Part shown: in pieces, positions 5,289-62,549 of the stretch
How positions within the stretch are numbered: position 1 is the first letter of the stretch
Layout of the letters: the number at the start of each line of letters is the position of its first letter
Assembly: GCA_045577775.1 (NCBI GenBank)
Contig: JAZNIZ010000025.1
Span: forward strand, 28,353-92,352
Length of the DNA: 64,000 nt
Reading direction: 5' to 3'
DNA from: Akkermansia sp.
GTDB taxonomy: Bacteria > Verrucomicrobiota > Verrucomicrobiia > Verrucomicrobiales > Akkermansiaceae
Position numbers and translations under genes: made by a program
Notes under the pieces: generated by a model
Told to the model about the DNA's origin: nothing
Database searches by the model: none
The model's input: only the letters and a program-made list of their open reading frames with translations

Positions 5289-8200
5289 CTACTTGCAGTT
5301 GGTGACTCTCTGGGTGGTGACTACTTCGCGCAGGCATCGCAGCATCTCGATGCGACCGTTGGCCAGCACCGGCTCAGCGCAGAGAGACAAGCGGCATTGC
5401 GCGGCTCGCTGCAGGGTGGTGACGGTGGCTGCGGTGTCTCGCACCATGGTGCCGGAGGTGGCCATGGCGGGGAAATGCCCCTCATATTCGTCGCGGCTTT
5501 CTACTGCAATGATAACGCCGAGCGGTTCGAGCGCCCGGGGCATCCAGGCTCGCATACTGGCTGTGCTGAGCTGGATATCACAGCCTGCTTTGAGCGCCGC
5601 CATGAGGGCAATGGAAAGATCAATATCGCTGGTGGCTTTCTCGGCGCGTATGCAGAGAGAAAGGGGACGGTAGCTCAGGGTCGTGCGGAAAGCCGGGCTT
5701 TCATCCAGTACCTGGGTGGTGCCGAATTCGTTTTCCCACCAGTAGCCGATGGAGTCTGCTGCCGAAGAAAGGCGAGTGGTGTCATCTGGCCCAGGCTTGG
5801 GAGAAAGGGTTTCCCATGGCGTGAAAGCCAGGTTTCGCTGGGTACCGCGGTGTTGCGGGCGGGCGACCTCCTGCCACTGGCTGAGCGCGGTGAGGAAATT
5901 GTGACCACCGCTCATGGGGACTGTGTTCTGCCAGCCAATGCGCGGTCGCACGCCGGGGCGGGGCTGCGGACAGCAGTTGATGCTGACCTGGCTGGCGGAA
6001 GTGAGCCGGCTCCATAGTTCTATCTCGTTCTTGTCCCGGGAATAGATGCCTACGCTGAGTTCCTGCGATTGTTTGCGCTGCATGCGCCCTGCTTCCTCAG
6101 TGCTTTCAACGCGGATGAGGCCAATTACCGGTACATTGTGGACCGCGCGGGCAAAGGCGCTGCCGGGTTTCACGCCTGCGCGCACACCGGGGCTCCACAC
6201 CTGTGAGCCAATTTCGGCCGTAGCGGGAGCAACAAGCCATGTTTCACCCGGCTCCAGCTGGGTGAGCATGAACCGTTGGTCATCATTGAGCGGGCGTCCC
6301 ATGGGACCGATATCTGCACCTTCCATCCACCCGGGTTGGGCGGTGATGCTGGAGACGGCGTCGCGCAGGGCATTCATGAAATGCTGGTTGTCGTACACTT
6401 CTGCATGAGTGTAGAGAAGGTGCGGCATGGCGGGGTTCTGCCCGGCTCTGCTGAAGAGTGTTTGCGTGATATCGCGGATTGCCTGAGCCCAGTCACCCTG
6501 GGAGGAAAGGTAAATACTGCTGCAGCCACCAGTGCCGCCCAGTACGGGGCGGCCATCGGCTGCTGCGGCCATTTCGTAGGTGTGCTTGGCACTGCCGTGG
6601 TAGATGAGACCATTGACCCGCTCGCTGCTGAGCAGTTTGTGTGCAATCTGGTTATCAAGGCAGGGCAGCATTTGTAGCCTCGGGAACGTGAAACCTGCTT
6701 CGGTCAGCAAATGCGTAAGTTTTTCTGCCAATAGCACGGTGTGCGATGAGGGCTTGTAGATAATCGCATTGCCGGTAATCCATGCTGCGGCAATGCCGGC
6801 CATAGCCTCCTCCAGCGGGTGTACCCGGCTGGGGGCTACTGTGATTACTCCCAATGGACTGGGCTGGGTGCCGTCCATAAGCCCATCCTGCACGATACTG
6901 CGCTCATAGAACCGGCAGGAGTCAATGGAATTGGCGAGCTCCAGGTCGGCTTCTTCCAGGGTGAAGCCTGCATCTCTCACCAGCAGAGAAATGAAATCGG
7001 TGCCGCGTTTCTCCAGCAAGCGTGCCGCCTGCAGCAAGTGAATGCGGCGTTCTTCCTGCGTGGGCGGCATTTGTACAGCCTCGTGTGCGGCGGTGTTGAG
7101 CACATCGCTCACCATCTTGAAATCAGCGGAGCAGAAGCGGTAGTCCTCCATGCCGGGAGCTGTCAGCGAGCGGCTGATGCAGAGTAAGGATGATTCTGTC
7201 TCTTTCCCATTGATACGCAGTGGAATTTGTTGTTGCTTCCGTTCTGCTTCTTCTGCTGCAGCCCGGTGCAGGGTATCCATGCGTGCGCGGTCGGTAATGC
7301 CGGATAACCGGGTGAACGCGTAGGAACCATGGGCACCAGGTGCTTCTCTTGTTTGTTCTTCTCGGCCGCTCAGAGCCGCCAGGAAATGCTGGCGCATGCG
7401 TCCCCAGCCCATGGAGTTGGATTCCAGCTCACCGCCGGAGGCCAGAATGCCTTCTGGGCGCCCCAGTTCCTGCACCAGTGAGAGCAGGTAGGATTCGAAG
7501 CCTGCCTCGCCGCCTTCTGTTGTGACGCCCGTGGTCAGCAGAACCTGAGCGCCATTTTTTGTAAGCAGGCGCCCGGTGTGGTTGCAAAGTCCGGAAATAA
7601 AACAGAATTGGGGGTTGCCCTCGCGGCCAGAGCGACCCCAACTGAGTAGCCCATAGGCAATATCAAACAGGTTGTGGGTGCCGACTACCGGGGTAAGTAC
7701 CTTTTCCTTTGTACTCATGGCGGTGGCAATAAGCTGCTTATAGCGGGCTTCTGTTTCGCTCTTGCTGCGGCACACCTCGTTGGCTGTGCCGTATACGTAG
7801 GTGATTTCCTGTTCTGCGTCCAGGTGGCTGCCCTTGACCAGCAGAACCTTGAGAGGAGCTGCTCCCTTTGCGGCACGAGCGGTCGCCCATTCGGTCATTT
7901 CGCGCAGCAGTGCAGGGCTGCCTTTCAGGTAGGCCGGGATTTCCAACGCTGCGTCAGCCTTGTACAGAGCAGAACCCGCCATGGCCAGGCGGAAACCTTC
8001 TGCCACGATGTTCATGGTGGTGGAAAGGCCGCTTTCTACCAGTATGGGGCGGGGGGTGCTGCCTTGTATGGAAAGCTTGAGGAGCGGACGCAGTTTTCCC
8101 GCCAGGGCTTTGGCTCCGGCTTCGGGAGAGTATGGGTTTAACCCCGGGCAGAGACGCCACGGTTGAATGACCACCCCCACGCCGTCCTGCTTGGTGAGAA

Positions 8201-8753
8201 TAGCTTCCAGGTGCTTGTAGTATTTTTCTGCGCCTTTCTGCCCGAATACCTGGGGTACAAGCGGATTTAGAGCCAGGGTGAGTCCCTCTTTGGAGCATTC
8301 GCGTACGCGTTTGGCCACCTTATCTGCCAGCGTGGGCAGGGTGAGCTCACCAAAGGTGGAGCGGAAAATACGCTGTACTTCTGCGATGGCTGCTCCTTGC
8401 ATGCTGCGTGCAGCCATGGCTGCGGCCTTGAAACGCAGCTTGCCTACTGTGCTGAAAATGGGAGGTACCCCCCCATGTTCTGCCAGGAGCCGCCGGAGGT
8501 TTGCTGCCTGTTCTGCTGAGTCGGTAACGTGGAAAACGCTGCCGCAGAGGTCCTGCACAAAGGCGAGGTTCTTTTTATCTGTGGCCAGGCGTGAAAGTGC
8601 AGAAATGAGCGTGCGCTCATCGGACCGGATTCCCTTCAGGGAGGCAAGCAGAAGCTCCTGGGCCAAATCAGCAGAGTGCTGAGCCAGGGTGCGGTCATCC
8701 CATTTGCGCCGTTTTGCCTCTGCCAGTTGTGCCTGTATATCCAGTTCCGCCAT
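5289..8753 (-). CDS. putA: PutA-like proline dehydrogenase/P5C dehydrogenase homologue with degenerate catalytic motifs
   Basis: PRODH-like LVKG and THNLFDIAY, then an ALDH-like region (GNAIIYKPS, AGQ). Start at ATG 8753, downstream of TTGCCA-17-TAGAAT. Catalytic residues are replaced (see findings). Confidence 0.85.
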   Translation of the reverse strand: MAELDIQAQLAEAKRRKWDDRTLAQHSADLAQELLLASLKGIRSDERTLISALSRLATDKKNLAFVQDLCGSVFHVTDSAEQAANLRRLLAEHGGVPPIFSTVGKLRFKAAAMAARSMQGAAIAEVQRIFRSTFGELTLPTLADKVAKRVRECSKEGLTLALNPLVPQVFGQKGAEKYYKHLEAILTKQDGVGVVIQPWRLCPGLNPYSPEAGAKALAGKLRPLLKLSIQGSTPRPILVESGLSTTMNIVAEGFRLAMAGSALYKADAALEIPAYLKGSPALLREMTEWATARAAKGAAPLKVLLVKGSHLDAEQEITYVYGTANEVCRSKSETEARYKQLIATAMSTKEKVLTPVVGTHNLFDIAYGLLSWGRSGREGNPQFCFISGLCNHTGRLLTKNGAQVLLTTGVTTEGGEAGFESYLLSLVQELGRPEGILASGGELESNSMGWGRMRQHFLAALSGREEQTREAPGAHGSYAFTRLSGITDRARMDTLHRAAAEEAERKQQQIPLRINGKETESSLLCISRSLTAPGMEDYRFCSADFKMVSDVLNTAAHEAVQMPPTQEERRIHLLQAARLLEKRGTDFISLLVRDAGFTLEEADLELANSIDSCRFYERSIVQDGLMDGTQPSPLGVITVAPSRVHPLEEAMAGIAAAWITGNAIIYKPSSHTVLLAEKLTHLLTEAGFTFPRLQMLPCLDNQIAHKLLSSERVNGLIYHGSAKHTYEMAAAADGRPVLGGTGGCSSIYLSSQGDWAQAIRDITQTLFSRAGQNPAMPHLLYTHAEVYDNQHFMNALRDAVSSITAQPGWMEGADIGPMGRPLNDDQRFMLTQLEPGETWLVAPATAEIGSQVWSPGVRAGVKPGSAFARAVHNVPVIGLIRVESTEEAGRMQRKQSQELSVGIYSRDKNEIELWSRLTSASQVSINCCPQPRPGVRPRIGWQNTVPMSGGHNFLTALSQWQEVARPQHRGTQRNLAFTPWETLSPKPGPDDTTRLSSAADSIGYWWENEFGTTQVLDESPAFRTTLSYRPLSLCIRAEKATSDIDLSIALMAALKAGCDIQLSTASMRAWMPRALEPLGVIIAVESRDEYEGHFPAMATSGTMVRDTAATVTTLQRAAQCRLSLCAEPVLANGRIEMLRCLREVVTTQRVTNCK

Positions 8754-50288: not shown

Positions 50289-50331
50289 AATTCCCGCGAA
50301 TCGGGAATCGTATTCCCGATTCGCGGGAATT
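50289..50331. repeat. Perfect 20-bp inverted repeat with a 3-nt loop
   Basis: AATTCCCGCGAATCGGGAAT-CGT-ATTCCCGATTCGCGGGAATT; an extra AATCGGGAAT at 50354-50363. Confidence 0.95.
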
Positions 50332-57013: not shown

Positions 57014-57388
57014 ATGATTGATTTTGAAAATGGCAGCGTGTTTAAATTGTCCCCGGTAGACCCTGAATCGGTGATGGGGAGGGTGGGGCCTCTCCTGCTG
57101 GACGATGAGTTTATTGTGGCAGCCTACAAGGCCATTCGCGATGGTGTGGTGTTTACCAATAAGCGCGTGATTGCCATGAATGTGCAGGGTATTACCGGCA
57201 AGAAGGTGGATTACACCTCGCTGCCGTACAGCAAGGTTCAGGCCTATTCCGTGGAAACGGCCGGCACGTTTGACCTGGATTGCGAGCTGGATTTGTTCTT
57301 CAGTGCGCTGGGGCATGTGCGCTTTGAGTTGCGTGGTGGGTGTGATATTCGCGCCCTCTGCCGGGCTATCAGTGAGTATATCTTGTAA
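57014..57388 (+). CDS. Bacterial PH-domain protein (bPH_1/DUF1696-like)
   Basis: RDGVVFTNKRVI..NVQG.TGKK....SLPYSK...YSVETAG.FDLD.EL. Confidence 0.88.
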   Translation: MIDFENGSVFKLSPVDPESVMGRVGPLLLDDEFIVAAYKAIRDGVVFTNKRVIAMNVQGITGKKVDYTSLPYSKVQAYSVETAGTFDLDCELDLFFSALGHVRFELRGGCDIRALCRAISEYIL

Positions 57389-57449
57389 ATGCAGAATGCA
57401 GAAGTCAGAATGCAGAATGGGAATTCAGGGCACGGCTCCCGCCGCGCCG
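57388..57449. repeat. Left arm of the long inverted repeat (heptamer units AATGCAG/AAGTCAG plus a unique GC-rich stem)
   Basis: AATGCAG AATGCAG AAGTCAG AATGCAG AATGGG AATTCAGGGCACGGCTCCCGCCGCGCCG. Confidence 0.92.
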
Positions 57450-57457
57450 TGGAAGGC

Positions 57458-57489
57458 GAAAAAGCCTGACCTTCGGATCAGACTTTTTC
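57458..57489 (+). terminator. Terminator-like hairpin inside the cassette, upstream of the four-helix gene
   Basis: GAAAAAG.CTGA..C-TTCG-G..TCAG.CTTTTTC with a UUCG tetraloop and U tract. Confidence 0.6.
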
Positions 57490-57497
57490 TTTGATTC

Positions 57498-57526
57498 TTG
57501 CATTGCATGACTCTATGATGTAGCAT
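57498..57526 (+). promoter_or_regulatory. Promoter for the four-helix gene (leaderless geometry)
   Basis: TTGCAT-17 nt-TAGCAT, then 6 nt to ATG 57533. Confidence 0.6.
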
Positions 57527-57532
57527 GACAGC

Positions 57533-57946
57533 ATGAAGGAAGTCGATTATCGTAAACGAGGAGGAGAATTGCGGCAGCGGACTTATGATTTCTCCCTACG
57601 AATCATCAACTTGTGGAAATCCCTACCCAAGGGGCCAGAATACGAAGTGATAGGCAAGCAATTACTGCGATGCGGAACCTCTATCGGAGCCAATTACCGA
57701 GCAGCCACCGTCGGCAAGAGCGACCGTGATTTCCTGAACAAAATCCGGATTTGTCAGGAAGAAGCCGATGAGAGTTGTTATTGGTTGGCACTTCTGGCAG
57801 ACTCCGGGATGATACCAGCGAAGAAGCTTGAATCCATACGTGACGAAGCAAACCAGATAACAGCCATCATGACCGCCTCAGCGATTACGATACATAAGCG
57901 ACTACTGGCAGAAGGGCGAGACCAGGGCATCCCAGAAAAGGACTGA
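57533..57946 (+). CDS. Four-helix-bundle protein (23S rRNA IVS protein / TIGR02436-like)
   Basis: RTYDFSLRII, KQLLRCGTSIGANY, DFLNK..I..EEADES.YWL. Confidence 0.92.
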   Translation: MKEVDYRKRGGELRQRTYDFSLRIINLWKSLPKGPEYEVIGKQLLRCGTSIGANYRAATVGKSDRDFLNKIRICQEEADESCYWLALLADSGMIPAKKLESIRDEANQITAIMTASAITIHKRLLAEGRDQGIPEKD

Positions 57947-57964
57947 TCCGCAGGTCAGTCCTTT
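57937..57964. terminator. Bidirectional terminator overlapping the four-helix gene stop
   Basis: AAAAGGACTGA / TCAGTCCTTTT. Confidence 0.7.
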
Positions 57965-57974
57965 TCCCCAATCC

Positions 57975-58043
57975 CGGCGCGGCGGAAGCCGTGCCCTGAA
58001 TTCCTATTCTGCATTCTGACTTCTGCATTCTGACTTCTGTATT
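57975..58043. repeat. Right arm of the long inverted repeat
   Basis: Reverse complement reads AATACAG AAGTCAG AATGCAG AAGTCAG AATGCAG AATAGG AATTCAGGGCACGGCTTCCGCCGCGCCG, matching the left arm. Confidence 0.92.
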
Positions 58044-58098
58044 TTGAAATCCTTTTGGGCTTGCAAATCACTTGTTTTATAGTAGAATAACCCGCGTT

Positions 58099-59682
58099 AT
58101 GGCAGACCGTACACAAACTGATCCCGTCCGCATGGAAAAAATAGTCAGCCTTTGCAAGCGCAGAGGGTTCATTTTTCAAGCCGCAGAAATCTATGGCGGT
58201 CTTAACGGTTGCTGGGACTACGGTCCCCTGGGTGTTGAGCTCAAGCGCAATCTGAAGGATTACTGGTGGCGTGTCCACGTGCAGGAACGCCCGGATATTG
58301 TGGGTATGGATGGTTCCATCCTCACGCACAACTCGGTTCTGGTGGCATCTGGTCACGTAGGTGGCTTCTGCGACCCGCTTTGCGACTGTTTGCTCACCAA
58401 GGAACGCCTGCGCGCCGACCAGATTCCCGCCCAGAGCGGTGTGGCCTACTGGTGGAAGGGCGCTGCCCGCAAGGATGGTTCCTGGAGCACTAAGAAGGAA
58501 TTCTCCATGCTCGTGGAGGGCATGGATGACAAGAGCGCCAAGACCGCCCGCAAGGGGGCTCTCCAGTACTACAGCCAGATTGCCGGGAAGGGTACTCAGC
58601 CTGCTGACCTGGAGCTGCTGGAGGAAAGCACCGAGGAAGTGACCGACTCCGTGCGCTACAACCCGGCTAATGGTTCTCTGGTGACAGAGGCCCGCTCCTT
58701 CAACCTGATGTTCAAGACTACCATCGGTGCCACCTCCGATGAGAACGATCCCGCCAGCACCGGCTGGCTGCGTCCGGAGACAGCGCAGAGCATCTTCTGC
58801 CAGTACAAGAACATTCTGGATTCTTCCCGCAACAAGATTCCCTTCGGTATCGCTCAGATTGGTAAGTCTTTCCGCAACGAAATCAACCCGCGCAACTTCA
58901 CCTTCCGCTCCCGCGAGTTCGAGCAGATGGAGGTGGAATACTTCTGCAAGGGCGAGGACGGCTTCCGCCTGACCGACGAATGGCTGGAGAAGAGCCTCCA
59001 GTTCTACGAGAACATCGGTATCTCCCGCGATAAGATTCACATCCTCGATGTGCCGGATGAGGAGCGCGCCTTCTACTCCAAGAAGACCTATGACCTGGAG
59101 TACGAGTTCCCCTTCGGTGTGCAGGAGCTCATGGGTATCGCCTACCGCACGGATTATGACCTGGGCCGCCACCAGGAAGGCTCCGGCAAGCCCATGGAAT
59201 ACTTCGACGAGACCACCCGCGAGCGCTTCATCCCGCACGTGGTGGAACCCTCTGCCGGTTGCGACCGCTCCGTGCTGGCCGTTATCTGCGAAGCCTTCGA
59301 CGAGGAAGAACTGGGCAAGGACGGCAAGAGCGATATCCGCACCGTCATGCACTTCCACCCCCGCATGGCTCCCATCAAGGCCGCTATCTTCCCGCTGCTC
59401 AAGAAGAACGCCGAGCAGGTGCGCATCGCCCGCGAAATTGAAGCCGAGCTGCGTCCCTTCATGAACGTGTTCTACGATGAGGCCGGCGCCGTGGGCCGCC
59501 GCTACCGCCGCCAGGACGAAGTGGGTACTCCCTTCTGCATCACGGTCGACTTCGAGACCCTGGGCGAGGAAGGCGATCCCGCTCTCAAGGACACGGTGAC
59601 CATCCGTCACCGCGACTCCATGGACCAGGAACGCGTGGCCATTAAAGACCTGCTGCCCTGGCTGCTGAAGCGCATTCACTAA
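58099..59682 (+). CDS. glyQS: Glycine--tRNA ligase, homodimeric (alpha2) type
   Basis: IYGG..G.WDYGPLG, LRPETAQ, GKSFRNEI.P, FR.REFEQME, IGRRY-like VGRRYRRQDEVGTP; start at ATG 58099. Confidence 0.96.
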   Translation: MADRTQTDPVRMEKIVSLCKRRGFIFQAAEIYGGLNGCWDYGPLGVELKRNLKDYWWRVHVQERPDIVGMDGSILTHNSVLVASGHVGGFCDPLCDCLLTKERLRADQIPAQSGVAYWWKGAARKDGSWSTKKEFSMLVEGMDDKSAKTARKGALQYYSQIAGKGTQPADLELLEESTEEVTDSVRYNPANGSLVTEARSFNLMFKTTIGATSDENDPASTGWLRPETAQSIFCQYKNILDSSRNKIPFGIAQIGKSFRNEINPRNFTFRSREFEQMEVEYFCKGEDGFRLTDEWLEKSLQFYENIGISRDKIHILDVPDEERAFYSKKTYDLEYEFPFGVQELMGIAYRTDYDLGRHQEGSGKPMEYFDETTRERFIPHVVEPSAGCDRSVLAVICEAFDEEELGKDGKSDIRTVMHFHPRMAPIKAAIFPLLKKNAEQVRIAREIEAELRPFMNVFYDEAGAVGRRYRRQDEVGTPFCITVDFETLGEEGDPALKDTVTIRHRDSMDQERVAIKDLLPWLLKRIH

Positions 59683-59757: not shown

Positions 59758-60306
59758 ATGAATCTGTGTGATACCAGCCTTTCCCCCTCCTGCCGGCAGA
59801 GACTGAAAGAAAGTCTCTTCGATGATGAACAACTGCTCTGGGTGGGGCAACCTGTGCCGGAGCCGTGGGCATCGCCTGCCGGCTTTTTTGTGTTTTTCGG
59901 CGCGTTCTGGGTGGGCTCCTTGCTCTATGGTATCTGCCGCGGCGGCAGCCCGGCCATGATTTTTGCCCTGATTCCCTTTATCGGGATGCTGTTTGCCCCG
60001 CTGTTTAACAAGTGGATGCAGCAGCGCACTGTCTATGCGATTACCAACCAGCGCGCCCGAGTGCTGCGCTACACCGCTCTGGGCTATATTTCCTTGTCCT
60101 TTGTGCCGGTGCCTGGGATGATAAAATCCCGGGAAGAACTTCCCGGTGGCCTGGTGAACCTGGTGCTGGGCAAAAATCCCTACGTTGCCAGTAAACGTGG
60201 CGGTAACCTGAAGCCGGTTCCCGAGGGCTTTCTGCGAATCACGGCAGCTGATGCCGAAAAAGTTTTACCCCTTATCCGTCAACTTGAATCTAATCAACCC
60301 CGATAA
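59758..60306 (+). CDS. Array paralogue 1: two-TM protein with a PH-like C-terminal domain
   Basis: L..DEQLLWVGQP, two TM segments, YAITNQRA, G.VNL, EGFL. Confidence 0.78.
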   Translation: MNLCDTSLSPSCRQRLKESLFDDEQLLWVGQPVPEPWASPAGFFVFFGAFWVGSLLYGICRGGSPAMIFALIPFIGMLFAPLFNKWMQQRTVYAITNQRARVLRYTALGYISLSFVPVPGMIKSREELPGGLVNLVLGKNPYVASKRGGNLKPVPEGFLRITAADAEKVLPLIRQLESNQPR

Positions 60307-60311
60307 CCGTT

Positions 60312-60866
60312 ATGAAATTAGCTGATACTGAATTAAGCATCGACGAACGCCTGCTAGTGGAAAACTGTCTGCTGCGTGGAGAAGAAGTGCTCTGGGCGGG
60401 CAAGCCTGTGCCGCGTATGTGGTCCCCCGTGACTATTATTATGATGGTGATGGGCATTTTCTTCCTGTGTATAGACAGTGTGGTTATCCTCGGCGTCATG
60501 GAAATGGGGGGAGTGGAGCTGCTCTTTTCGCTTCCTTTCATGATAGCAGGGGCTCTTCTGATTGCCTCTCCGTGGATTGGCATGAGTTGGCAGAAGCACC
60601 ATGTGTATGCCCTGACCACCCGCCGTTCCCTGGTGTTCCGCTATATGTTCTGGAAGCATCATCAGATGTCCTTCCCCGTGGATAAGGTGATGCTGATTGA
60701 CCGCAAGGTGCCTGCTGCCGGGCTGGTGAGCCTGGTACTGGGCAAGAGCACCATTTCCAGCACCAACAATGTGCCCGACCCAGAGGGATTCCTCAATATC
60801 ACGGCAGATGCGGCTGCCGTGGTGGAACCGCTTATCATGCAGCTTGAAGAATCCTACACCAAATAA
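60312..60866 (+). CDS. Array paralogue 2
   Basis: GEEVLWAGKP, two TM segments, YALTTRRS, EGFLNI. Confidence 0.78.
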   Translation: MKLADTELSIDERLLVENCLLRGEEVLWAGKPVPRMWSPVTIIMMVMGIFFLCIDSVVILGVMEMGGVELLFSLPFMIAGALLIASPWIGMSWQKHHVYALTTRRSLVFRYMFWKHHQMSFPVDKVMLIDRKVPAAGLVSLVLGKSTISSTNNVPDPEGFLNITADAAAVVEPLIMQLEESYTK

Positions 60867-60871
60867 ATGCC

Positions 60872-61435
60872 ATGAAACTTGCCGATACAGAATTAAACTA
60901 CCAGGAGCGCCTGATGGTGGAAAACAACCTGATGCGCGATGAAGAAATCCTCTGGGTGGGTAAGCCCGTGCCCCGGTTGTTCTCTGCTGCCAACCTGGGG
61001 GCGTTCATCTTTTCTTTGCCATGGCTGGGCTTTATTGCTTTCTGGACCTGGGGTGCTGCGCAGGGCAGCGCCATTTTTGCCTGTTTCTCCATTCCCTTCT
61101 GGTGTGTGGGCATAGGCCTGTTCTGTTCGCCCTGGTGGGGGGTACGCCGGCAGAAGCGCACGGTGTACCTCGTCACCAACCGCCGTGCCATGGAATTGTA
61201 CCCCGGCATCTTTGGCTCATTCAAATCGCATGTGTGGCCGCTGGAGCCCGGCATGGTGAAATCCTGCACTGTGCGTAAGGATGGCAGCGGTGACCTGATT
61301 ATGGGCTATGAGGAACGCTGCGGCAAGCACGGCACCCATACTGTCCCCAGTGGCTTCATGAACGTACCCGAGGTGCGACGCGTGGAGCAGTTCCTCTACG
61401 ACCTGACCGAGGCAAAGCCCGAAATTCAGGAATGA
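60872..61435 (+). CDS. Array paralogue 3
   Basis: DEEILWVGKP, two TM segments, YLVTNRRA, DGSGDL, GFMNV. Confidence 0.8.
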   Translation: MKLADTELNYQERLMVENNLMRDEEILWVGKPVPRLFSAANLGAFIFSLPWLGFIAFWTWGAAQGSAIFACFSIPFWCVGIGLFCSPWWGVRRQKRTVYLVTNRRAMELYPGIFGSFKSHVWPLEPGMVKSCTVRKDGSGDLIMGYEERCGKHGTHTVPSGFMNVPEVRRVEQFLYDLTEAKPEIQE

Positions 61436-62004
61436 TATCCTCCGACCCCAGAGATTACGGGCTGAACCCCAGGCTCTGTGCCATGGTGCAGGATACCCTG
61501 CGCCCCGGCGAGCAACTGCGCTGGGTAGGGAAACCTCTTCTGCATCAGCGCCTTGACTGGGTAAACAATATAGGGCTCTGGCTATTCAGCTGCCCGTTCG
61601 GTGGCGTTGGCGGGTTGGTGTTCTACTTTGCACTCAAGGGGGAGCTGGAAGCCAGCGGCTTCGGCTTTTTCTTCGCCATCGTCATGGCGCTCATCTTTGT
61701 GCTGTTTTTTGTGCTGGCTCTCGTATCGCCCTTTTACCGCTTATGGACGCTGAGGAATACCGCCTATGTCATCACGAACCGCCGTGCCCTTATTGTCGGC
61801 TTTGATGAGGATTCCTGGCCTTTGAAGCGCGGCATGGTGGCGAGTAATTACCAGCGCAGGGATGGTAGCGGAAACCTTGTCTTTGCCATTCGTTGGGACG
61901 ATGAGAGAAACCGTTTTCTGGAATATGGATTCATGAACATCCGCGATGTGCGGCTGGTTGAGGAGATTTTGGAAAAAGTCATAGACGAAAGACAGAAAGC
62001 ATGA
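61432..62004 (+). CDS. Array paralogue 4
   Basis: GEQLRWVGKP, two TM segments, YVITNRRA, DGSGNL, GFMNI. Confidence 0.8.
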   Translation: MISSDPRDYGLNPRLCAMVQDTLRPGEQLRWVGKPLLHQRLDWVNNIGLWLFSCPFGGVGGLVFYFALKGELEASGFGFFFAIVMALIFVLFFVLALVSPFYRLWTLRNTAYVITNRRALIVGFDEDSWPLKRGMVASNYQRRDGSGNLVFAIRWDDERNRFLEYGFMNIRDVRLVEEILEKVIDERQKA

Positions 62005-62549
62005 AATCAGCAGACCCCAGAGATTTTGGGCTGAACCGGCTTCAGTGCGCCAGATTGCAGGAATGTCTGCAACCCGGCGAGCGGCTGCGCTGGGCGGGGG
62101 CTCCTGCTCATCTTGGCGTGCAGTGGGGATTGCTGCTGTGGTGTGTGTACTTCAGCCTGGGAATAGCCGCCTTTGTGTGCTGGCGTGCGTGGTTGGAGGA
62201 GACACCCGGCCTGTATCTCGTGGCTTCGTTTTTCGGGCTGCTGGGAGTGGGGCTTCTGGTGCTGCCGCATGTGGAGCGGCGCGAGGAGCGCCGCACGGTG
62301 TACGCTATTACGAACCGTCGCGTGCTGGTTTGCGGAAAGTCGGATGAAGAATGGGCGCTGGCACCGGATATGGTGGTCAGCAATCTCCAGAATGGGGATG
62401 GTATTGGCAATTTGGTTTTTGCGTTGCGTCCCAGCACGGACCCTGACCTCAAACAATGTTTTGATGAGGTGGGCTTCATGAATGTGCGCGATGTTCGGCT
62501 GGTGGAAGAGATATTGGAAAAAGCCATAGCAGAAAGGGAAAACGCATGA
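62001..62549 (+). CDS. Array paralogue 5
   Basis: GERLRWAGAP, two TM segments, YAITNRRV, DGIGNL, GFMNV. Confidence 0.8.
   Translation: MKSADPRDFGLNRLQCARLQECLQPGERLRWAGAPAHLGVQWGLLLWCVYFSLGIAAFVCWRAWLEETPGLYLVASFFGLLGVGLLVLPHVERREERRTVYAITNRRVLVCGKSDEEWALAPDMVVSNLQNGDGIGNLVFALRPSTDPDLKQCFDEVGFMNVRDVRLVEEILEKAIAERENA

Follow-up and report, generated by a model that had tools for sequence, protein, structure and literature searches.

The 64,000-nucleotide stretch of Akkermansia sp. DNA analysed here (contig JAZNIZ010000025.1 of assembly GCA_045577775.1, positions 28,353 to 92,352; hereafter the window) carries, between the gene of a bacterial PH-domain protein (bPH_1) and the glycyl-tRNA synthetase gene glyQS, one copy of a widespread type of cassette, in which a gene of the PF05635/TIGR02436 family is enclosed by inverted arrays of about five tandem heptamers. 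We are highly confident of the anatomy of this copy and of the association of the gene family with inverted arrays of period 7 across phyla. Additionally, inverted array pairs occur without the gene, some of them with the same unit and on the same contigs as a gene-bearing cassette, and the cassette itself is found in multiple copies, with length variation by whole units, with an inverted allele, with a different cassette at the same site and with gene and unit travelling together across phyla.

The small proteins of the PF05635/TIGR02436 family are very numerous. Knowledge of them goes back to the 1990s and to intervening sequences (IVS) of ribosomal RNA (rRNA); structures have been solved at least twice, and the family is related to Avd, a protein of diversity-generating retroelements (DGRs), but to our knowledge no function has been assigned to it. 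Intergenic heptamer repeats, known for about as long, pose a puzzle of their own. The cassette class joins the two and appears not to have been described as such before: we found no publication in which PF05635 genes are connected with heptamer arrays at their flanks, in a literature search that left subscription journals mostly outside, so that a prior description is possible. In a preliminary description of the window, made from its letters, the cassette was taken for a small mobile or RNA-excising unit; what was overlooked there is that the arms continue through terminator-like hairpins and that the architecture is family-wide.

Architecture of the cassette in the window and across the PF05635 family

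The arms of the window cassette form an inverted repeat of 104 nt on each side (57392-57495 and 57929-58032, 87% complementary according to a repeat finder), longer than the roughly 60 nt first proposed, and a pairwise alignment of the outer ~60 nt showed two substitutions only within the aligned portion, the right array being longer than the left one by additional heptamer units. The heptamers named in the preliminary description (AATGCAG/AAGTCAG) were recovered on both sides by Tandem Repeats Finder, which returned period-7 arrays at 57388-57419 (4.6 copies of AATGCAG) and at 58006-58048 (6.1 copies, with a 14-nt super-period). A 26-nt core of the array occurs in only two places of the window, both in the arms, with 0 expected (100 shuffles). 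The outer boundaries also agree with those first given, with the left array opening on the final base of the bPH_1 stop codon (57386-57388) and the right one ending 12 nt before the promoter-like site of glyQS. On each side, the plan of the arm is the same: a heptamer array, a GC hairpin, and a terminator-like hairpin made of an A-run, a stem and a T-run. The features are as follows.

57014-57388, + strand: bPH_1, bacterial PH domain, 124 residues (PF08000, E 4.8e-40); its stop codon overlaps the first heptamer
57388-57419, + strand: left heptamer array, AATGCAG, AATGCAG, AAGTCAG, AATGCAG, AATG, 4.6 units (Tandem Repeats Finder, period 7)
57426-57451, unstranded: left GC hairpin, with loop TCCC on the + strand and GGGA on the - strand (DNA fold)
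57458-57489, unstranded: left A-run/stem-loop/T-run hairpin with the shape of a bidirectional terminator and TTCG in the loop region (fold; within the 104-nt inverted repeat)
57491-57519, + strand: promoter-like TTGATT-17-TATGAT, 13 nt before the ATG (consensus scan, 9 of 12 matches; predicted only)
57533-57946, + strand: PF05635/TIGR02436 four-helix-bundle gene, 137 residues (profile hidden Markov model matches, AlphaFold2, Foldseek)
57935-57966, unstranded: right A-run/stem-loop/T-run hairpin, mirror of the left one, overlapping the stop codon (12-bp perfect inverted repeat I6; fold z-score -4.3)
57976-57995, unstranded: right GC hairpin; loop GGAA (+ strand); one G.T pair in the stem (folds)
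58006-58048, + strand: right heptamer array, reverse complement of the left one, 6.1 units, super-period TTCTGCATTCTGAC three times (Tandem Repeats Finder; repeats D1, I1, I2)
58061-58088, + strand: glyQS promoter-like TTGCAA-16-TAGAAT, just outside the cassette (scan)
58099-59682, + strand: glyQS, class II glycyl-tRNA synthetase (PF00587, PF03129), with its ATG at 58099

The view of a discrete unit, bounded by heptamer inverted repeats and holding a promoter-like site, a TIGR02436 gene and inner terminator-like hairpins, is therefore borne out, the inner hairpins (57458-57489 and 57935-57966) being called terminator-like from their A-run, stem and T-run shape; a consensus terminator scan called neither. 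Two weaker promoter-like matches lie inside the enclosed coding sequence, and the only other one detected by the scan within the arms, upstream of the start codon, would serve the enclosed gene, whose mRNA would be near-leaderless, judging from the position of this predicted site. With a promoter-like site of its own within the arms, the cassette is probably insulated from the neighbouring genes, and a cassette both insulated and symmetrical should function in both orientations. The promoter-like site of glyQS is common to relatives with a different cassette (alignment of the window with L092, L007 and L001, and the sequence of L109). Equivalents of the GC hairpin were recognised in 20 arms of related cassettes, and in 18 of these the loop reads GGAA or GGGA on the strand that points outward; no asymmetry between strands was seen in RNA folding energy (mean difference 0, outward strand better in 10 of the 20 arms). 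These loops hint at a role of that strand, as RNA or as single-stranded DNA.

As had been proposed, the cassette resembles an IVS outside rRNA: at the gathering threshold, Rfam matched four tRNAs as its sole hits in the 64-kb window, with no rRNA, and matched no family at the cassette. Domains of transposases, reverse transcriptases, recombinases or invertases were absent from the open reading frames (ORFs) scanned over ~13 kb upstream and 5.5 kb downstream, in accordance with the earlier remark that neither a transposase nor a reverse transcriptase is encoded nearby, and neither the junctions of the window cassette nor those of the gene-less pairs inspected by eye showed a target-site duplication.

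The enclosed ORF (57533-57946) belongs to both family models by score (TIGR02436, 84.4 bits with a cutoff of 24; PF05635, 68 bits with a cutoff of 33.8), and its AlphaFold2 monomer model (predicted local distance difference test, pLDDT, of 91.3) has long helices at residues 11-30, 35-59, 64-90 and 96-130. The top Foldseek matches were 2RLD (E 3.7e-6, target-normalised TM-score 0.90) and 2GSC (0.82), followed by Avd (4DWL and entries of the DGR ribonucleoprotein). There are five chains in each of the PDB entries 2RLD, 2GSC and 4DWL (target-normalised TM-scores of 0.74-0.90), and the window protein, by analogy with these relatives, may be pentameric; a Xanthomonas homologue is a homopentamer (PMC4990558).

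In the family survey, one genome per species was searched with the window protein, which yielded 80 loci: 15 from Akkermansia and relatives, and the remainder from Bacteroidota, Ignavibacteria, Clostridia, Desulfobacterota, Chloroflexota, Planctomycetota, Lentisphaerae, Proteobacteria and other groups, for more than ten phyla in all. Seven nucleotides was the best tandem period in 127 of the 158 gene flanks (79 loci), compared with 48 of 278 control flanks, and the right unit was the reverse complement of the left one (with at most one mismatch) in 44 of 79 loci versus two of 139 control genes, both of which turned out to be additional PF05635 genes. At least one array was present in 72 of the 80 loci and a concordant inverted pair in 44-45 of them, versus about 1% of other genes. 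The inverted-repeat score of the flanks was at least 40 in 31 of 64 non-Akkermansia loci versus ~3% of 303 other genes in the same loci, and it lay far over that of shuffles in every close copy. None of the fetched loci carries any of six conserved 16S/23S motifs.

The units are specific to lineages (e.g., TAATTAC, AATGGAG, AATTACG, AATTAAG, AATTGAA and GTTTTGA), and paralogues in one genome use different units, both in Akkermansia and in Flavobacterium. The median array is 31 nt long, with a mode of 4-5 units that is shared by the arrays of the metagenome scan described below; AATT or AATG occurs within 28 of 38 units (21% expected), and the inward-reading strand of the units is poor in C (6%). 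In most phyla the arrays directly adjoin the ORF, at median distances of 15 nt from its start and 11 nt from its stop, and they are present in three of six viral-contig loci. Cassettes with identical units in different phyla encode proteins with 66% identity, versus 43-51% in the other unit-distance classes, a result given by four pairs only (permutation p ~0.05), and the correlation between protein and unit across phyla is weak (rho -0.12). In three loci from Desulfobacterota (L028, L030 and L035), the inverted arrays are built from a 10-nt unit (CTAAAGTGAG) and not from heptamers.

The protein of PDB entry 2RLD, BT_0352, is itself encoded in such a setting. In Bacteroides contigs its gene lies between araD and araA, all on the same strand, inside the arabinose operon, with (ATTGACA)4.5 on its upstream and (ATTGTCA)4.4 on its downstream side (L238 1935-2432, L239 1915-2000). 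The short inverted array immediately before its start has two units in one sample and four in another, and no A-run/stem/T-run hairpin was evident in the sequence read at this locus.

Copies, replacements and gene-less arrays

The loci closest to the window cassette belong to metagenomes of ruminant guts. A copy with the same arm plan, whose protein has 87% identity, is found at the same bPH_1|glyQS site of another Akkermansia assembly (L001); the left and right GC hairpins of this copy differ in sequence and both still fold. A protein with 83% identity and the same arm plan is found in L003 at a different site, between glucosaminidase and SPOUT methyltransferase genes, and the same locus has, 4 kb away and between convergent genes, a gene-less element (7980-8215) with two AATGCAG-type arrays, the same 32-nt hairpin as that of the cassette, and a terminator-like hairpin. 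A second, A/T-rich heptamer array (ACATTCA/AAATCAA) is also held by this element.

The bPH_1|glyQS site can also be occupied by something else. In L010 and L011 the bPH_1 protein is identical to that of the window and homology ends exactly at 57388, after the stop codon, as it does in L109. In L109-L111 a different PF05635 gene (116 residues) is found at the site, an alternative seen there in full and shared by L010 and L011, and the replaced segment stops at the -35 box of glyQS. Each arm of the L109 type consists of five small GC hairpins, most of which have GNA loops, with the heptamer ATTTCGA/ATTTCAC as spacer, and the right arm mirrors the left one. Hairpin 3 of L109 differs between the two arms, with each stem kept through compensatory changes, which indicates that what is conserved are the local hairpins and not a pairing of left with right. 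In L092 (2876-3571), the interior of the window-type cassette lies between its arms in the opposite orientation (93% identity to the reverse complement), and the four-helix-bundle ORF is broken into pieces of 46 and 53 residues. The related cassette at another site (L003), the different cassette at the same site (L010, L011, L109-L111) and the multi-copy array all fit the movable or replaceable unit envisaged in the preliminary description. The coordinates of the second cassette type, and those of the junctions discussed below, are as follows.

L109 2866-3500, L110 1121-1755 and L010 765-880: second cassette type at the bPH_1|glyQS site
Window 57386-57394, L001 3864-3872, L003 3852-3862 and 7978-7986, L235 and several others: junctions of stop codon and heptamer

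When metagenome contigs were aligned to the window, the depth in the bin of the left array was 5-18 times that of the flanks, and many short contigs match 57388-57418 only, with unlike sequence on both sides. Array alleles shorter by 7 or 14 nt were seen for the right array in runs X28 and X3, and the left array lacks one 7-nt unit in run X2; additionally, the co-linear form is accompanied by an opposite-strand joint in run X28. The only metatranscriptome contigs touching the cassette, two of low depth (57846-58004 and 57901-58032), run from the gene via the right hairpin into the right arm. A joint in run X15 that skips the interior (57422 to 58013) was present in one contig, with a side of 20 nt, and was not counted as an excision product.

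At every Akkermansia junction of the window type that we saw, and at several others, the first heptamer begins within the stop codon of the gene upstream or directly after it (T[GA]A-ATGCAG, TGA-ATTGCGG); a bulk count of such stop-codon overlaps across all arrays was too noisy to interpret. Several short-read contigs (L009, L093, L106-L108 and further metagenome contigs) end within or just past the left heptamer array, so that the arrays behave as assembly breakpoints. Upstream of a bPH_1 paralogue, L094 and L095 (1970-2360) have a conserved, structured-looking non-coding stretch of ~250 nt followed by a (TCGTAAA)4 array; the stretch in L095 had no Rfam match. Five tandem hairpins separated by TTCACC-type spacers are also found in L095 (1796-1940), and the whole ~600-nt insert seen in L094 and L095 is absent from the same gene junction in L096 and L097.

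Arrays of the window type are also dispersed without the gene. A metagenome search for the AATGCAG-type array returned at least 120 DNA stretches, and the 80 loci listed, of widely variable G+C content, originate from soil, peat and marine samples and from termite guts. In about 14 of the 20 loci inspected by eye, the arrays form gene-less inverted pairs of the plan (GAATGCA)4-5, short spacer, (TGCATTC)4-5 in intergenic DNA, with measured gaps of 9-84 nt. A strict partner-array search, in which 57 of the 80 loci were scored as unpaired, overlooked diverged partners, and its count was set aside. In the PF05635 loci, 48 arrays are located at distances over 400 nt from the cassette, and 23 of them have the same unit as that cassette (versus a null of 15%), a count dominated by three loci.

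Relation to known systems

The cassette shares several properties with the IVS of 23S rRNA in Leptospira and Coxiella ('S23p'), which are elements of ~0.4-0.7 kb with a PF05635 protein within terminal inverted repeats, a sporadic distribution and a suspected horizontal transfer (PMC4990558); in particular, its terminal inverted repeats (104 nt, 87%) would be capable of forming a stem. It differs from them in lying outside an rRNA gene, between bPH_1 and glyQS instead of within a 23S helix, and in its own promoter-like site and terminator-like hairpins; its arms are made of tandem heptamers and local hairpins, and we found no evidence of these arms pairing in RNA.

A second parallel is with the REPIN/RAYT systems (dispersed doublets of repetitive extragenic palindromes, REPs, and the REP-associated tyrosine transposase), where dispersed short inverted doublets are accompanied by a gene flanked by the same repeats in inverted orientation, in intergenic DNA and without target duplications. 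Here as well a gene lies between inverted repeats that are also dispersed in gene-less form; however, RAYT is an HUH Y1 transposase which recognises REP hairpins, whereas the present protein is a four-helix bundle and the repeats are tandem heptamers. The REPIN/RAYT systems are reportedly those of Nunvar (2010), Bertels and Rainey (2011) and Ton-Hoang (2012).

The short tandem 7-nt arrays in intergenic DNA, found by Tandem Repeats Finder in the window and again in the related loci, recall the short tandemly repeated repetitive (STRR) sequences of cyanobacteria and the TAACTGA repeats, which are likewise intergenic 7-nt tandem arrays with 2-6 copies, often at start or stop codons, and with lineage-specific units. 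Those have been reported as direct repeats without a protein family, whereas here inverted pairs are tied to PF05635 genes. The cyanobacterial STRR heptamers were reportedly described by Mazel in 1990. Intergenic TAACTGA heptamer repeats occur in Beggiatoaceae, cyanobacteria and Bacteroidetes, with no linked gene family (PMC4679880).

Avd, the accessory protein of DGRs, has the same fold and also five-chain PDB entries (4DWL, 8UBE; TM-score of 0.6-0.78), but the identity of the window protein to it is only 12-15%. Avd binds nucleic acid jointly with a reverse transcriptase, and we know of no Avd genes flanked by heptamer arrays. No DGR context was recognised for the window cassette, in that the ORFs scanned on both sides contain no reverse transcriptase (template and variable repeats were not searched for). 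Finally, miniature inverted-repeat transposable elements (MITEs) and mobile insertion cassettes have, like the present elements, terminal inverted repeats, a small size, multiple dispersed copies, a passenger gene and gene-less derivatives; unlike them, the elements described here have no target-site duplication or, within the 64-kb window, matching transposase that we could find, and their heptamer repeats are dissimilar to the ends of insertion sequences. PF05635 genes also occur inside cas operons (PMC3936711).

Proposed function, alternatives and further observations in the window

The constant period of 7 nt, together with the variable unit, the concordant arrays, the paralogue-specific units and the lengths of about five units, points to a protein that measures heptamers, and, the PF05635 product being the only protein consistently present, it is the one that we propose as the array binder. 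In the proposed mechanism the arrays would be the cognate binding sites of the encoded protein, a predicted pentamer: each heptamer would be read by a single protomer, so that a pentamer would cover 35 nt (5 x 7), to be compared with the 31-33 nt of the modal array. The nucleic acid bound would most likely be single-stranded. Cassettes with the gene would be the autonomous form and the gene-less inverted arrays their non-autonomous derivatives, as REPINs are to RAYT genes, while the ORF-bearing IVS of 23S rRNA would be copies that landed in rRNA. Since the arms are inverted, a single specificity could read both of them only on DNA (as a duplex, or as single strands of opposite sense) or on RNAs transcribed from opposite strands. 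That the arms are bound by the cassette's own protein, an idea already present in the preliminary description, is plausible, and the family-wide 7-nt periodicity strengthens it. For the model as a whole, namely a selfish cassette that moves horizontally and encodes the binder of its heptamer arrays, we consider the chances to be evenly balanced. A broader version, according to which PF05635 pentamers would be sequence-specific binders of tandem heptamers, with one protomer per unit, and would define pan-bacterial selfish palindromic elements (autonomous gene-bearing cassettes and gene-less derivatives), with the 23S IVS and at least some intergenic heptamer repeats (STRR, TAACTGA and similar) as special cases, is put forward tentatively and seems to us somewhat doubtful.

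Several observations weigh against this model. Binding of the arrays by the protein is proposed from patterns in the DNA, five units agree with five protomers in number only, and no catalytic or DNA-binding motif is known in the window protein. The ORFs scanned on either side (~13 kb upstream, 5.5 kb downstream) revealed no transposase, reverse transcriptase or recombinase, and the junctions showed no target-site duplication. The comparison of the bPH_1-glyQS interval across relatives, recommended earlier as a way of finding empty sites, revealed replaced (L109-L111) and inverted (L092) cassettes but no empty site: on the contigs of the window bPH_1 and of five homologues, every syntenic relative has a cassette, and the more distant bPH_1 homologues lie in other genomic contexts, so that movement at this site is deduced solely from replacement and from copies elsewhere. 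The 80 family loci are the best matches to one subfamily and hence a non-random sample of PF05635, and the identity of proteins sharing a unit across phyla comes from the four pairs mentioned above. A PF05635 gene adjoins the array in only two of the 80 listed metagenome loci, the other 78 having none in the fetched stretch. Arrays may also have other contents, namely an ORF which by eye resembles a DUF559-type endonuclease, with inner inverted repeats of its own (L126 825-1440), and a tRNA gene (L166 2390-2725), and in L190 (7593-8045) they are read in frame within an RHS/YD-repeat ORF; given such cargo, the arrays could be an independent repeat merely colonised by genes.

These last observations are those expected if the arrays were a host-level intergenic repeat, comparable to REP or STRR sequences and acting as terminator, RNA stabiliser or insulator independently of the gene, with PF05635 genes merely inserting or persisting there and a protein that ignores the arrays. 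The terminator-like hairpins in the Akkermansia arms are in line with such a role, as are the intergenic heptamer repeats reported without a linked gene (PMC4679880). Nevertheless, nearly all sampled PF05635 genes have arrays (in the 72 loci and 44-45 concordant pairs given above, versus about 1% of other genes), the units differ among paralogues of one genome in Akkermansia and Flavobacterium, unit and protein travel together across phyla, and at the bPH_1|glyQS site the cassette was replaced along with its arms, so that we regard a repeat indifferent to the gene as unlikely. We think it more improbable still that the cassette is an RNA module of the IVS kind, in which a read-through transcript would span both arms, the arrays would form a duplex of ~30-100 bp and RNase III would excise the ORF-bearing RNA. 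IVS with this ORF do have inverted repeats at their ends that RNase III cuts (PMC4990558), arrays and ORF adjoin each other in most phyla, and two metatranscriptome contigs pass the right hairpin into the right arm, but these transcripts are slender evidence, part of which may be DNA. In the window, the left array is separated from the mRNA by a terminator-like hairpin and by the promoter-like site of the gene; the mismatches between arms have no wobble bias (32 G.U, 37 A.C and 69 transversions in 37 loci); hairpin 3 of L109 differs between arms and keeps its own stem by compensatory changes; and a duplex requires neither tandem repeats nor a constant 7-nt period. The geometry of the inverted arms, the lack of wobble bias and the intervening promoter-like and terminator-like elements thus argue, for this copy, against an RNA duplex, and with it against the earlier suggestion of arms pairing in the transcript as an RNase III substrate. 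An RNA duplex is possible where arrays abut an ORF within an operon, as for BT_0352, whose close arrays and co-directional setting without an evident A-run/stem/T-run hairpin mean that both arrays could share one RNA there.

The inverted repeats and the two orientations seen, in the inverted interior of L092 (from another metagenome) and in the opposite-strand joint beside the co-linear form in run X28, could also suggest an invertible switch, with the arms as sites of a site-specific invertase and flipping that controls the neighbouring genes. We give very little credit to this explanation: the ORFs scanned around the cassette contain no invertase, and no outward-acting promoter was recognised inside the segment; with the predicted promoter of the gene inside the segment and that of glyQS outside it, inversion switches nothing obvious. 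Moreover, inverted repeats of 100 bp recombine via ordinary homologous recombination, and the inverted copy in L092 has a broken ORF.

The link between PF05635 genes and heptamer arrays makes both puzzles testable, by confronting the pentamer with its own five-unit array, and the lineage- and paralogue-specific units provide natural specificity pairs. BT_0352, in the arabinose operon of Bacteroides thetaiotaomicron, is a tractable model. If the proposed relation of autonomous and derivative forms were true, the cassettes and the gene-less arrays would constitute a new repeat-plus-gene system comparable to REPIN/RAYT, with relevance to genome annotation, to assembly breaks at arrays and to operon architecture.

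Two other observations concern the window outside the cassette. Downstream of glyQS there are five tandem ORFs on the same strand (59758-62549), of 182-190 residues and with similar N-termini (MKLADTELS...); the two that were scanned had no Pfam match. At 50289-50331, the window has a perfect 20-bp palindrome with a 3-nt loop (AATTCCCGCGAATCGGGAAT CGT ATTCCCGATTCGCGGGAATT), each half of which is itself a small hairpin.

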